Below, piece after piece: positions 24,914-28,339 of a stretch of 32,000 nucleotides of DNA (position 1 is its first letter; each line of letters begins with the position of its first letter). The DNA is taken from positions 60,001 through 92,000 of the forward strand of contig CP008939.1 of the NCBI GenBank assembly GCA_000743035.1, read 5' to 3'. Made by a program: the position numbers and the translations under genes. Below the pieces are notes generated by a model, which ran no database searches, had not been told where the DNA came from, and saw only the letters and a program-made list of their open reading frames with translations. Source of the DNA: Candidatus Paracaedimonas acanthamoebae. GTDB lineage: Bacteria > Pseudomonadota > Alphaproteobacteria > Caedimonadales > Caedimonadaceae.

Positions 24914-27900
24914 TTGGTGCAAAATAAAACCTCAAACATTTTTGAGAGTTCCCTTAAAGACATCCTAGATTTTATTTATATCCATCAACTTCAAGTTTTG
25001 CATAATGTTCACTTTACTCGGCGAGAAATTGAAATCATTGCTTGTCTTATGAATGGAAGGCCCCCCAAAGGAATTGGCGCTTTACTCTCCCTCTCTCCTC
25101 GTACCATTGAAGTTCATATTTATAATATTTTTAAAAAGCTTGAGGTTAACTCCAAAGAGAGCCTTATCACGTTAATTGAAAAAACTTCACATATTTTTAC
25201 TCTTAAGAAGTTTTATCTTTATCTTTCTTGGCTAAAAGAATTCGAAAAAAATTTAGAAATTATAGCAAGACTTCCTTTTCATAAAGGTGCTGTTCAAATT
25301 GTTGGATGGAAGGAAGACATTTCAGACAGGGCTTATTTCTTAAAAGCCTTAGAAGAAACACTCAAACAAGCAGGCTTTATTACTTCCCTTGTTATAATAG
25401 ATGAGCCTTTTCCAAATATTAAATTCCAAAAGAATCAGCCTATACAAAGCCTTATTTACTTTCTTCCCATCCAAACTCTAAAAGGATTATTCAGTACAAA
25501 AGAACAAAAAGAGTTTTTAAGCGCTTCAAGCTCTTATTCATTAATAAGTGTTTATTTGCTTGAAGAAGGAATCCTTCCTTCTCCTTATCTTTCTGTCGAG
25601 TGCAAGCATTACCTTAATAGAAATGCTTTATTTTTGGATATCATTAAGTTGATTGCTAATCATGCAGATATCACTAAAATAACTGAATCCTTTATTGCTC
25701 ATACTCAATCAATTGAATCTCCCCCTTTTTTTTCTTCTACTATACCCTCTAGAAAAAACAAATCTGTTCTTTCCTCTTGGTTATCCATTAAGGGGTTTTC
25801 TTATTCTCTTCTAGGAGCTTTGGGTATAAGTTTAGCAGGGTTTTACTTTATTAAAGGCTTCTACCATGGGCCTTTAAAGCAGCGTCATAAGATAGAAATT
25901 CAATCAGAACTTCCAATTCCAACCCCTGCTTTTTTTTTAGAGCGCCCTGTTTTAATGGTTCATATGCATAAAAGCCTTAAAGGCCAAAAAGGAATTCAAA
26001 CTATAGCTCTTATTGGCATGGGGGGCATGGGTAAAACAACTCTTGCTCGCCACTATGCCCGCATTTATAAAGAATCTCTTGTGTGGGAACTCAATGCAGA
26101 AACCCCTGAAAATCTCTCTCGTTCTTTTGAAACCCTTGCTGAGAGCTTAATTCACACTGAAGAAGATAAAATCTTTCTCCAACAAATAAAAGATATTAAA
26201 GAAGATTATAAACGCTTAGAAAAAATGGTAGGTTTTGTCAAGCATCGCCTCAAACAACACCCTCATTGGATTTTAATTTACGACAATGTTGAACAATTCT
26301 CGGACATTAAGTATTACTTTCCTTATGATGCTACTTTATGGGGGCCTGGAAAAGTGATCCTCACAACGCGTAACAGCAATATTCAAAATTGCCTTTATAT
26401 TAATGCTCACCTTCAAATCCCAGCTTTAAATCCTGAAGAAAGAGAAGACTTATTCTCAAAGGTTCACAGCAGCTCAAAGGAGCAAACCTTAGAAGAACGC
26501 AAAGATTTAAAAGTATTTTTAGAACAAGTCCCCCCCTTTCCTCTAGATGTCACGCTTGCAGCTCAGTACTTAAAGAATACAAAAGCAAGCTATAATGAAT
26601 ATCTTGGGGCTCTTTATCATGATGAAGCTAATCTTTCCCAAAGCCATAAGGAGATCTTAACCTCATCTCAAAATTATCATCAAACCCGCTATAGTATTAT
26701 TAAACTTTCTATTGAAAAAATGCTACAAAAGCACCCTGATTTTAAAGATTTTCTTATCCTTTTAACACTCATTGATTCACAAGCAATACCGAAATTTTTG
26801 TTTGAAGGTTATAAAAGCAAAGATTTGGTTAATACTTTCATCCAAGATCTTCACCATTATTCTTTAATTAGTTATAATACTTCATCTCAAGGTCTTGCAA
26901 CATTCTCCATTCATCGCAGCACTCAAGAAATGATGCGCGCTTATTTATTAAAAAAGCTTAACTTAACTTTGAATGACCCCAGATTATATATACTTTCTGA
27001 GTTTCTTGAGAAGTTTATTTATGACACTGTCCTCGAAGAAGATTTTGCTAAAATAAGGAAACTAATGAACCATGGAGAGGCCCTTTTAAAGCACACAAAT
27101 TTGCTTACAGACGAGCAAAGAGGATATTTAGGGTGTCAGGTGTCAGGATTTTACCTTTTACTCAACATTTATTCTAAGGCAACTGAAACTTTAAATAAGA
27201 GCCTCAAGCTTTTAAAAAATGCTAAAAAAATAAAGCCTGAATGTCTTAAAATAGACTTAAGGAAAGCCAACATTCTTGTCTACAGAGGGATTGTTAAAAA
27301 GTGTTTAGGAGAGTATAAAGCTGCCTTAAGTGACGTACAAGCTGGTTTAGAGATTTATCGTACACTGTTTCCCACCCATTATATGAGGCTTTCTTGGACA
27401 CTTGAGCATTTAGGGGATGTAAGTCTATACTTAGGTCACTATAAAGATGGTGTTAATTATTTAAAAGAATCTGTGGCTCTTTTAAAAAACTATATGCCTA
27501 AGGATGACTTAAGAATCTCAACAAGCCTTATTAAGCTTGGCAAAGCTTATGTAGAAAATGGAGACTACCTCCTTGCAAAAAACTCTCTTGAAGAATCTTA
27601 CCATATACAAACTCAAAAGATTCTTAAAAAGCATTATCGTCTGATTAGTTGGAATTTAGGATTTCTCGGAAAAGTTTATAAAGCACTGGGCTATTATGAG
27701 AAAGCCCAAGAGCTCTTTCAACAAGGGAAAAAGCTTCATCAAATACATCTTCCTGATAATCATGATGATATTGCTTGGTTTTCTCTTCATATAGGAAACC
27801 TTTTAACAGAAATGGGAAGCTATCATGAAGCAGAAATTATGCTTAAAGAAGCTCTAGGAGAGTGCCAAAAGTATCTTCCACCTCAACACTCCTCAATCTT

Positions 27901-28339
27901 TTTAGCCAAATATTATTTAGGTATTTTATATTGTGGAACTGGAAGGCAAAATTTAGCAAAAAAGAATCTTCAAGAAAGCTTAAAGAATTATGAGAGAATC
28001 TATGGGACTCACCATATTGAAACAGCGCGTATATTAAGGGCTTTAGCATGCCTTTATATGGCTCAAGATCAACTTGAAACTGCAGAAAATTTATTGTTCA
28101 GGTCATTGTCAATTTTTAAACTCAGTTCGCATCCTGAGCAATTTATGGATTATGAACTCTTAGCAGATTTATACCGCAAAAAAGCCCAAGGGAAAGGCCC
28201 TTTGCAATCAAGCTTTTTTCTCAAAAAAGCGGAACAGAACTTGCAGCAGGCCATTTCCTTAGGTAAAGTTTCTTATGGAGAGAAAACCCCTCATTTATTA
28301 AGGGTACTCGCTAAGCTTGAATTTTTTAAAAAGCATTAG
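24914..28339 (+). CDS. STAND NTPase with an N-terminal LuxR/GerE-type HTH, an unknown region, one hydrophobic segment, an NB-ARC-like P-loop NTPase and C-terminal TPR repeats
   Basis: The HTH is FTRREIEIIACLMNGRPPKGIGALLSLSPRTIEVHIYNIFKKLEV. The hydrophobic stretch is FSYSLLGALGISLAGFYFIKGFY. Walker A is GMGGMGKTTLA, Walker B is WILIYDNVE, followed by VILTTRN and PPFPLDVTLAAQYL (GLPL-like). About 10 TPR units of the kinesin-light-chain type follow. The start is TTG at 24914 or GTG at 24917, after AAGGGAGA. Confidence 0.85.
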   Translation: MVQNKTSNIFESSLKDILDFIYIHQLQVLHNVHFTRREIEIIACLMNGRPPKGIGALLSLSPRTIEVHIYNIFKKLEVNSKESLITLIEKTSHIFTLKKFYLYLSWLKEFEKNLEIIARLPFHKGAVQIVGWKEDISDRAYFLKALEETLKQAGFITSLVIIDEPFPNIKFQKNQPIQSLIYFLPIQTLKGLFSTKEQKEFLSASSSYSLISVYLLEEGILPSPYLSVECKHYLNRNALFLDIIKLIANHADITKITESFIAHTQSIESPPFFSSTIPSRKNKSVLSSWLSIKGFSYSLLGALGISLAGFYFIKGFYHGPLKQRHKIEIQSELPIPTPAFFLERPVLMVHMHKSLKGQKGIQTIALIGMGGMGKTTLARHYARIYKESLVWELNAETPENLSRSFETLAESLIHTEEDKIFLQQIKDIKEDYKRLEKMVGFVKHRLKQHPHWILIYDNVEQFSDIKYYFPYDATLWGPGKVILTTRNSNIQNCLYINAHLQIPALNPEEREDLFSKVHSSSKEQTLEERKDLKVFLEQVPPFPLDVTLAAQYLKNTKASYNEYLGALYHDEANLSQSHKEILTSSQNYHQTRYSIIKLSIEKMLQKHPDFKDFLILLTLIDSQAIPKFLFEGYKSKDLVNTFIQDLHHYSLISYNTSSQGLATFSIHRSTQEMMRAYLLKKLNLTLNDPRLYILSEFLEKFIYDTVLEEDFAKIRKLMNHGEALLKHTNLLTDEQRGYLGCQVSGFYLLLNIYSKATETLNKSLKLLKNAKKIKPECLKIDLRKANILVYRGIVKKCLGEYKAALSDVQAGLEIYRTLFPTHYMRLSWTLEHLGDVSLYLGHYKDGVNYLKESVALLKNYMPKDDLRISTSLIKLGKAYVENGDYLLAKNSLEESYHIQTQKILKKHYRLISWNLGFLGKVYKALGYYEKAQELFQQGKKLHQIHLPDNHDDIAWFSLHIGNLLTEMGSYHEAEIMLKEALGECQKYLPPQHSSIFLAKYYLGILYCGTGRQNLAKKNLQESLKNYERIYGTHHIETARILRALACLYMAQDQLETAENLLFRSLSIFKLSSHPEQFMDYELLADLYRKKAQGKGPLQSSFFLKKAEQNLQQAISLGKVSYGEKTPHLLRVLAKLEFFKKH

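Follow-up and report, generated by a model that had tools for sequence, protein, structure and literature searches.

How can a DNA-binding domain and a nucleotide-driven switch work together in one polypeptide if a predicted transmembrane helix lies between them? The question is raised by a plasmid gene of Candidatus Paracaedimonas (formerly Caedibacter) acanthamoebae, located in a stretch of 32,000 nt (CP008939.1, positions 60,001-92,000, forward strand, assembly GCA_000743035.1), here called the window. The gene encodes a protein with an N-terminal LuxR-type helix-turn-helix (HTH) domain and a C-terminal signal transduction ATPase with numerous domains (STAND) of the NB-ARC type, followed by tetratricopeptide repeats (TPRs). 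The bacterium is an obligate symbiont in the cytoplasm of Acanthamoeba (PMC11909080), and its genome and plasmids have been published (PMC4198247). An earlier note, made from the sequence alone, had remarked that a membrane-spanning segment would place the DNA-binding domain and the ATPase on opposite sides of a membrane, and the analysis described here finds this paradox to be a real one. The explanation that we favour, at just short of an even chance, is that of a ToxR-like single-pass inner-membrane one-component regulator with an extracytoplasmic STAND (NB-ARC-TPR) sensor.

Domain architecture and the TIR-derived domain

The protein is encoded by a single open reading frame (ORF), with the following parts (aa, amino acids; pLDDT, predicted local distance difference test score).

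24914-28339, + strand: complete ORF, 1141 aa, 3426 nt, without a competing ORF of at least 80 aa
25013-25171, + strand: GerE/LuxR HTH, aa 34-86 (Pfam GerE; FixJ C-terminal domain 1x3u; pLDDT >90)
25193-25270, + strand: long family-specific helix, aa 94-119, packing on the alpha/beta domain (AlphaFold2 models, family alignment)
25280-25717, + strand: alpha/beta (flavodoxin-like) domain, a degenerate TIR derivative, aa 123-268 (model, hhalign)
25718-25792, + strand: juxtamembrane linker, disordered and non-conserved, aa 269-293 (pLDDT 33-48; 10% identity)
25793-25864, + strand: single predicted transmembrane helix, aa 294-317, with a conserved position 63-111 aa upstream of the P-loop (hydrophobicity, Hessa dG, AlphaFold2)
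25898-26968, + strand: NB-ARC STAND NTPase, aa 329-685 (Pfam, Foldseek, motifs), with the lead motif IQSELPIP; the invariant R344 is a separate position further downstream
26015-26041, + strand: Walker A motif GMGGMGKTT, aa 368-376
26273-26287, + strand: Walker B motif LIYDN, aa 454-458
26360-26374, + strand: LTTRN motif, aa 483-487
26534-26548, + strand: GLPL-like motif PFPLD, aa 541-545
26906-26926, + strand: MHD-like motif SIHRSTQ, aa 665-671
26978-28333, + strand: TPR sensor/scaffold of about 10 repeats and 21 helices, aa 689-1140, kinesin-light-chain/LGN-like

Pfam profiles identify GerE at aa 34-86 (E 9.5e-14; 51.2 bits against a gathering cut-off of 23.5), NB-ARC at aa 352-580 (E 2.1e-11; 44 bits against 23.5) and multiple repeats of TPR_12 (E 4.9e-30) and TPR_10 (E 4.7e-18), all above their gathering thresholds. 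The HTH carries the T-x-R-E ... S-x-x-T-V-x-x-H pattern of the GerE/LuxR superfamily, with R37, E38, L58, T64 and H68 nearly invariant, and the ATPase contains the Walker A and Walker B motifs, the sensor-1 Arg (TTR), the GLPL motif and the MHD-like His of the NB-ARC/AP-ATPases. AlphaFold2 modelling of the full chain from a 65-sequence alignment (mean pLDDT 87.6) yields the HTH (14-89), the long helix (94-119), the alpha/beta domain (126-268), a disordered stretch (270-296), a lone helix (297-317), a second disordered stretch (318-328), the NB-ARC region (329 to about 685) and 21 TPR-type helices (689-1140). Foldseek searches of the PDB with the whole model retrieve the TPR proteins APPBP2, LGN and KLC and the STAND proteins Apaf-1, ZAR1, RPP1 and SAMD9. 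Pfam and the model thus bear out the domain order that the earlier note had read from the letters (HTH, unknown region, hydrophobic segment, NB-ARC, TPR); the motifs it quoted, GMGGMGKTT, LIYDN, LTTRN and a GLPL-like motif (PFPLD), are found in the sequence, and its estimate of about ten TPRs agrees with the 21 modelled helices.

A word-index protein search with the query retrieved some 80 homologues, 1100-1250 aa in length, whose Pfam domains are the same. A subsequent exhaustive HMMER search, for which the profile was limited to the N-terminal region specific to the family, yielded 944 clusters (50% identity) with E <=1e-3 and 663 with E <=1e-10, and in nearly all clusters the N-terminal domain is located at residues ~83-270 of proteins of ~1100-1250 aa. 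Mean pairwise identity within the family is highest in the HTH (48.5%), followed by the NB-ARC region (47% and 43%), the TPRs (~29%), the transmembrane helix (17%) and the linker (10%). In the family alignment R344, G368, G371, G373, K374, T375, W452, G479, P543, L544 and Y563 are invariant, and D457, N458, T484, T485 and H667 are nearly so (>=90%), as are Y101, F110 and L114 in the helix at 94-119. The nucleotide-binding motifs of the NB-ARC domain are intact, and their conservation shows the nucleotide switch to be under strong purifying selection. Variability of the TPRs is expected of a sensor domain, and a conserved HTH and nucleotide-binding oligomerisation domain (NOD) combined with variable TPRs would fit many sensors that feed one similar output.

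The roughly 200 aa between the HTH and the hydrophobic segment, left unrecognised in the earlier note, form a real domain, to which an identity can now be given. A separate model of residues 92-270 (pLDDT 89.9; predicted template modelling score 0.86) has a three-layer alpha/beta fold. Foldseek searches with this model returned nothing below E 1e-3; the weak matches are flavodoxin-like folds, including SIS, REC, a 'cryptic TIR' (5for) and the TIR domains of SARM1 and RPS4. No direct Pfam TIR match is present in the query, and the relationship becomes apparent through sister proteins (P0051, P0071 and P0061) in which a TIR_2 domain (aa 50-171) replaces the HTH and the alpha/beta domain and is followed by the transmembrane helix and NB-ARC-TPR. 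This TIR domain shares the terminal '...IDF..NYY..F.LL' helices with the query domain, and hhalign comparison of the family profile with the Pfam-TIR regions of the sister proteins gives 98.4% probability (E 7.6e-15, 144 columns), which supports homology to the TIR superfamily. The region at aa 123-268 is therefore a degenerate TIR-derived domain. The catalytic-Glu column contains Glu in 11 of 45 HTH-bearing proteins and a gap in 17 of 45, and lies in the most variable and most often deleted segment, so that the conserved catalytic Glu of an NADase-competent TIR is lacking. This loss suggests that the domain most likely serves as a non-catalytic scaffold, and the family would offer a natural example of a catalytic TIR decaying to a scaffold once a DNA-binding output has been added. 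A word-index search with the TIR-like profile (A2) gave nothing at E <=1e-3; it was the later exhaustive HMMER search that gave the 944 clusters.

The predicted transmembrane helix and its orientation

The hydrophobic stretch of the query, GFSYSLLGALGISLAGFYFI (aa 294-313), has a best 19-aa Kyte-Doolittle window of 1.58. In 79 homologues the most hydrophobic 19-aa window ahead of the P-loop is located 63-90 aa upstream of Walker A, mostly with Kyte-Doolittle values of 2.0-3.2, and the median uncharged span is 21 aa long. The Hessa dG has a family median of -1.36 kcal/mol and is <0 in 55 of 80 members, while every other window in every member is at +2.5 or higher (next-best median +6.7), which leaves exactly one transmembrane candidate per protein. 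The internal helix is present in 150 of 168 sequences, with outgroups making up about half of the exceptions, and the result was replicated in 91 further full-length members taken from the 50%-identity clusters (dG <1.5 in 81). In the AlphaFold2 model the helix at 297-317 is isolated between disordered linkers and packs against nothing. The segment is thus predicted to be a conserved single transmembrane helix, whose position is kept in about 90% of members and whose sequence is not; hydrophobicity conserved at 17% identity is the pattern of a lipid-facing helix and not of a buried core. The earlier note had left the choice between a segment that does not cross the membrane and a protein that works in an unusual way. 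The former is disfavoured by a segment that is the only candidate, is conserved in about 90% of members and has a positive N-flank, and the latter is the one to pursue.

The flanking charges indicate an orientation. In the query the linker terminates in the K/R-rich SRKNKSVLSSWLSIK, and the 15-aa N-flank of the helix contains 4 K/R and 0 D/E. The corresponding N-flanks of the 79 homologues contain on average 4.1 K/R and 0.7 D/E (net +3.4) and the C-flanks 2.5 K/R and 1.9 D/E (net +0.6); the N-side has more K+R than the C-side in 62 members, as much in 14 and less in 3. In an independent set K+R is higher on the N-side in 62, equal in 18 and lower in 7 (net +3.2 versus +0.8). Overall, the net charges amount to +3.3 before the helix and +0.7 after it. 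According to the positive-inside rule the K/R-rich flank stays cytoplasmic, and a folded N-terminal domain of 290 aa that lacks a signal peptide would not be expected to cross the membrane. Taken together, the charge asymmetry and the long N-terminus would place the HTH or TIR in the cytoplasm and NB-ARC-TPR on the trans side. A cytoplasmic location is the usual one for DNA-binding and TIR domains; the ATP-dependent switch would come to lie in the periplasm, for which no precedent is known. The reverse orientation (N-out/C-in) was considered and rejected on these same grounds. Export of a pre-folded, nucleotide-loaded domain by the Tat route was also rejected, since the N-flank is mostly KK/RK and not twin-arginine.

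A candidate extracytoplasmic sensor, its relatives and its rivals

The proposed mechanism is modelled on ToxR/CadC-type membrane-bound regulators and on the induced-proximity signalling of NLR proteins. The N-terminal ~290 aa (LuxR HTH, helix and degenerate TIR-like domain) would be cytoplasmic, one helix would span the membrane, and NB-ARC and TPR would be periplasmic. Capture of a ligand by the variable TPR array would free the nucleotide-dependent NB-ARC switch and the protein would oligomerise; oligomerisation would cluster the cytoplasmic HTH domains at the membrane, and transcription would be altered. LuxR-type HTH domains of this family normally act as dimers. In the sister proteins carrying an intact TIR in place of the HTH, such clustering would switch on the TIR by induced proximity. 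Several shorter relatives (P0047, P0042, P0011, L036, L067 and L065) have the order HTH-linker-transmembrane helix-NB-ARC without the alpha/beta domain, and these variants, the TIR-transmembrane helix-NB-ARC sister proteins and the homologous domain of the query are consistent with such an output-module layout. The actual topology, the ligand, the oligomerisation, the DNA binding and the target genes of this scheme are what we infer; an NLR-like sensor with a transcriptional output, as the earlier note had suggested, is still the most parsimonious account of its function.

A periplasmic ATPase is conceivable in these bacteria. The ATP/ADP translocase, which imports host ATP across the inner membrane, is a hallmark of these lineages (PMC4198247), and with such import and a life free in the host cytoplasm, ATP/ADP must be present in the periplasm. 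A broader proposition, which we put forward tentatively and with its chances rated clearly below even, is that a STAND/NLR ATPase works outside the cytoplasmic membrane, in the periplasm, using host ATP/ADP, sensing host ligands or the adenylate state and signalling by oligomerisation to a LuxR HTH or TIR, and that Holosporales-type symbionts read their host chiefly through its hundreds of variants. To our knowledge, the STAND/NLR switches of bacteria, plants and animals are all viewed as strictly cytosolic. If the topology is true, this would be the first extracytoplasmic STAND ATPase and a new class of membrane-bound one-component regulator, and it would provide direct evidence, at the molecular level, of signalling by obligate intracellular bacteria that draws on host ATP in the periplasm; should the topology prove different, the family would still represent a new way of tethering NLR-like switches to membranes.

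The protein shares features with several known systems. Like AfsR (the SARP-NB-ARC-TPR protein of Streptomyces) and GutR of Bacillus subtilis, it has an N-terminal DNA-binding domain, an NB-ARC STAND module and C-terminal TPRs, with a transcriptional output. AfsR differs in having an OmpR/SARP winged helix and BTAD instead of GerE, and both AfsR and GutR are cytoplasmic and lack the TIR-like domain and the helix between DNA-binding domain and NOD. The query has no Trans_reg_C or BTAD match and reaches only 23.9 bits in the NCBIfam AfsR model (cut-off 1430), in the P-loop region only. MalT and other LAL regulators likewise combine a LuxR/GerE HTH, a STAND NTPase and helical repeats, and activate transcription through ligand- and ATP-driven oligomerisation, but MalT begins with the NTPase and ends with the HTH, whereas the query has the reverse order (HTH 34-86, NTPase 329-685); in addition, the query NOD is NB-ARC and not MalT-type, and a transmembrane helix is absent from MalT. 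In the query, the match to the NCBIfam MalT model is confined to the HTH (23.3 bits; cut-off 537). The earlier note was therefore right that the order is inverted relative to MalT/LAL, but it is not unprecedented: besides an XRE-HTH-NB-ARC-TPR relative (P0082), N-terminal DNA-binding domains on NB-ARC-TPR proteins are already known from AfsR-type SARPs and GutR (PMC1524751), and ECF-like HTH effectors of conflict systems are a further precedent for N-terminal DNA binding (PMC8195603).

In its predicted arrangement, with a cytoplasmic DNA-binding domain, a linker, one helix, a C-terminal extracytoplasmic sensor and oligomerisation at the membrane, the protein resembles ToxR, CadC and TcpP. Those regulators have an OmpR-type winged helix and small, ATP-independent periplasmic domains, whereas the query has a LuxR-type HTH and a putative ATP-dependent STAND sensor of 810 aa. 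Avs, bSEFIR and eukaryotic TIR-NLR proteins share the N-terminal TIR-family domain, the NOD, the repeat sensor and induced proximity; the TIR of the query differs in lacking the conserved catalytic Glu and in being preceded by a LuxR HTH, its helix separates effector from NOD, and the protein matches no defence model. Toll-like receptors offer a topological analogy only (repeat sensor, one helix, cytoplasmic TIR-type domain), with the opposite N-to-C order, a sensor of LRR type instead of TPR and NB-ARC, and no sign of common descent. The TPR protein of the FxSxx-COOH system (NF040586) is matched with 188 bits against a cut-off of 300, in the NB-ARC region (aa 341-678) only, which falls short of membership. 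What is new is the GerE HTH at the N-terminus of an NB-ARC-TPR protein, the decayed TIR between HTH and membrane and, above all, the conserved predicted transmembrane helix that divides output from NOD.

Several points weigh against a periplasmic sensor. We know of no STAND ATPase that works outside the cytoplasm, which sets a low prior, and the proposed topology (HTH/TIR in, NB-ARC-TPR periplasmic) derives from hydrophobicity and the positive-inside rule alone. The argument for an ATP supply draws on a hallmark of the lineage. The helix of the query is among the weakest in the family by both its Kyte-Doolittle (1.58) and its Hessa value (+1.96; next-best window +7.45). The C-flank is not depleted in K/R (2.5 per 15 aa, ~17%). 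A few intact members lack the helix (P0039, the first copy at L008, L047 and the chimera P0111, which has a different NB-ARC), and the module can thus evidently exist with both halves in the cytoplasm. Cys is less frequent in the C-terminal part (0.77 per 100 aa) than in the N-terminal part (1.44), without an even-number bias. As for a regulon, no conserved gene neighbour was found (the best candidate occurs in 9 of 72 loci), nor were conserved target genes, and a search upstream of 53 homologues for an inverted repeat comparable to the one described below gave none, which speaks against a conserved operator.

The same weaknesses favour a possible though doubtful alternative, in which both halves are cytoplasmic, the protein acts as a transcription activator that is soluble or attached peripherally, as in AfsR, GutR and MalT, and the helix is a monotopic anchor, a buried oligomerisation helix or a segment that inserts on activation, as the pore-forming N-terminal helices of some NLRs do. 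It is well established that the characterised STAND regulators are all cytoplasmic and require ATP, and the rare intact members without a helix, the borderline helix of the query and the ~17% K/R remaining in the C-flank would all be accommodated. However, the segment is uniformly hydrophobic and non-amphipathic, its 21-residue uncharged median is too short for a hairpin, and the model gives it disordered flanks and no packing partner; hydrophobicity conserved without sequence (17%) is typical of lipid-facing helices, and the strongly K/R-rich N-flank resembles a signal anchor. Also to be considered, and compatible with either topology, is an NLR-like conflict or immune system (cf. Avs, bNACHT and bSEFIR) that protects the symbiont or the plasmids it carries from phages and other mobile elements, with the HTH as a transcriptional effector and the TIR variants as NADase effectors. 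The TIR/SEFIR variant P0051 matches the PADLOC bSEFIR model (E 1.6e-14), the N-terminal output domains are exchanged while the NOD-TPR core stays the same, the family shows lineage-specific expansions, tandem arrays and variable TPRs, and the plasmid carries insertion sequence (IS) elements, a toxin gene and a CBASS-type patatin; HTH effectors have also been noted in such systems (PMC8195603). We nevertheless regard it as unlikely: among PADLOC models the query itself gives only a generic P-loop/AAA match (PtuA, 17 bits), its TIR-like domain has no catalytic signature, the HTH is the most conserved part, suggesting housekeeping regulation, and obligate intracellular symbionts meet few phages and yet have at least five paralogues per genome.

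A host-directed role, in which a secreted effector inserts in amoeba membranes and its eukaryote-like NB-ARC-TPR/TIR modules disturb host signalling, appears highly improbable. The neighbouring genes are effector-like (an LRR protein, patatins and secreted coiled-coil proteins), these symbionts have further large NB-ARC proteins, which bear kinase-like domains (L013), and the host amoeba has an NB-ARC-TPR protein of its own, proposed in Acanthamoeba castellanii as a pattern-recognition receptor (PMC4053784). Against this, it is not obvious what a bacterial LuxR HTH, here the most conserved module, would do in a eukaryotic host, neither a secretion signal nor a secretion system was identified, and a K/R flank followed by a hydrophobic span is a classical bacterial signal anchor, implying retention in the inner membrane. 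That the ORF is an artefact, either two genes joined by a frameshift or assembly error, as the earlier note had allowed for, or a decaying pseudogene, is barely conceivable. Apart from the IS-rich plasmid setting there is no positive evidence for it, while the frame is continuous, the GC content uniform, the catalytic motifs invariant and the AlphaFold2 model confident across the whole chain. The same full-length layout recurs in about 80 homologues from independent assemblies, in 72 genomic loci and in hundreds of clusters, and the gene is genuine.

Family distribution, variants and genomic setting

In a scan of genomes, each species being represented by one, 115 related loci were located. 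Those retrieved, 80 in number, come nearly all from Paracaedibacteraceae, 'Caedibacter', Holosporales, Holosporaceae and unclassified alphaproteobacterial metagenome-assembled genomes (MAGs); the oddly labelled bins among them are few and consist of short contigs. The family thus appears almost confined to Holosporales-type obligate intracellular Alphaproteobacteria. Several genomes contain paralogues (at least 5 loci in JAIEPE01, 5 in MKUL01, 4 in MEMA01 and 2 in Ca. Paracaedibacter symbiosus), and tandem arrays of two (L003) or three copies (L004 and L008) are present. In the L008 array (L008:172-10334) copy 1 is intact (1061 aa) and has lost the helix, and copies 2-3 retain it. The query gene is one member of a very large lineage-specific expansion and not a singleton, and the family may be the dominant sensory or regulatory gene expansion of Holosporales-type symbionts, about whose regulation very little is known. 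Searches of the literature yielded no account of this protein family or architecture, and its members are annotated only as 'tetratricopeptide repeat protein' or 'hypothetical'.

Further variants were observed. A protein from the 'Caedibacter sp. 38-128' MAG (L057:5146-8370) has a signal-peptide-like N-terminus (…RVCLIFLYLTALLPCSFA/SH…), a SEFIR/TIR-like domain and NB-ARC-TPR, without the internal helix; if the N-terminal segment is truly a signal peptide, this protein would be exported whole. A more distant variant, P0086, has an N-terminal anchor. A 1992-aa neighbour protein at L013 (L013:9438-15414) contains an N-terminal hydrophobic segment, an EcKL kinase-like region, a second NB-ARC type, DUF7779 and HEAT repeats, indicating that these symbionts join NB-ARC modules to very different N-terminal parts. 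A word-index search with an HTH-plus-helix profile (A4) for the module fused to known periplasmic domains returned only 10 short fragments. Among them, a 142-aa LuxR-type protein (P0228), from a Candidatus Tisiphia endosymbiont according to its truncated source name, matches the HTH-plus-helix profile with E 5.9e-30, suggesting that the N-terminal module, whole or as a remnant, is also found in bacteria other than those listed for the genome scan.

For the closest homologues, P0002 and P0003, the neighbours are unrelated to those of the query, and the upstream regions end at contig ends. With no conserved neighbour or upstream palindrome, the protein appears to be a self-contained unit.

A look-up of the plasmid in PLSDB gave no match. 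The ORF product is 100% identical to the deposited 'hypothetical protein IM40_10715' of the plasmid, and no ORF >=80 aa in any other frame overlaps 24914-28339. The annotated start, TTG 24914, directly precedes GTG 24917, and the latter may be the true start, as suggested by comparison with the homologue P0004 (1140 aa, start MQS...). The upstream region contains the following elements.

24801-24845, no strand assigned: perfect 18-nt inverted repeat, TAAGTACAATCTACTTAA, 9-nt spacer, TTAAGTAGATTGTACTTA (100% complementary)
24849-24877, + strand: sigma-70-like promoter candidate TAGACA-17 nt-TAAAGT (9/12 consensus positions; a weak match only)
24900-24904, + strand: Shine-Dalgarno-like GGGAG (sequence read), 9 nt from TTG 24914 and 12 nt from GTG 24917

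The inverted repeat is located in the divergent intergenic region immediately upstream of the promoter candidate. It occurs once in the window, against a chance expectation of 0.2 matches, and is limited to this locus. It may be an operator or structural element, its tie to the STAND gene being unproven.

The window is AT-rich (GC about 0.32-0.45) and represents a plasmid accessory region, encoding ParA, SSB, IS3, IS6 and IS110 transposases, a resolvase, MazF, two patatin-like phospholipases, a leucine-rich-repeat protein and a DUF6119 protein. The patatin-like phospholipases are encoded at 21555-23273 (- strand) and 8630-9847 (+ strand); the former has a coiled-coil N-terminal extension of ~245 aa and matches the PADLOC models of CBASS-type phospholipase effectors (E 8e-56), and no cyclase gene was seen near it. 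Two adjacent genes at 23258-23965 and 23975-24694 (both - strand), divergent from the STAND gene, encode coiled-coil proteins of ~235 aa with signal-peptide-like N-termini and without a Pfam match, and show no relationship to the genes that flank the closest homologue. The leucine-rich-repeat protein (917 aa) is encoded at 13191-15944 (+ strand); proteins of this type are typical host-interaction genes of amoeba symbionts. A 430-aa ORF at 18044-19336 has no Pfam match and, in PADLOC, only a weak match to LmuA. The DUF6119 protein at 30582-31919 (+ strand) has a Ser-rich tail and matches only profile positions 209-523 of 524; its gene adjoins the IS110 transposase at 29514-30518 (- strand) and was probably truncated at its 5' end by the IS110 insertion.

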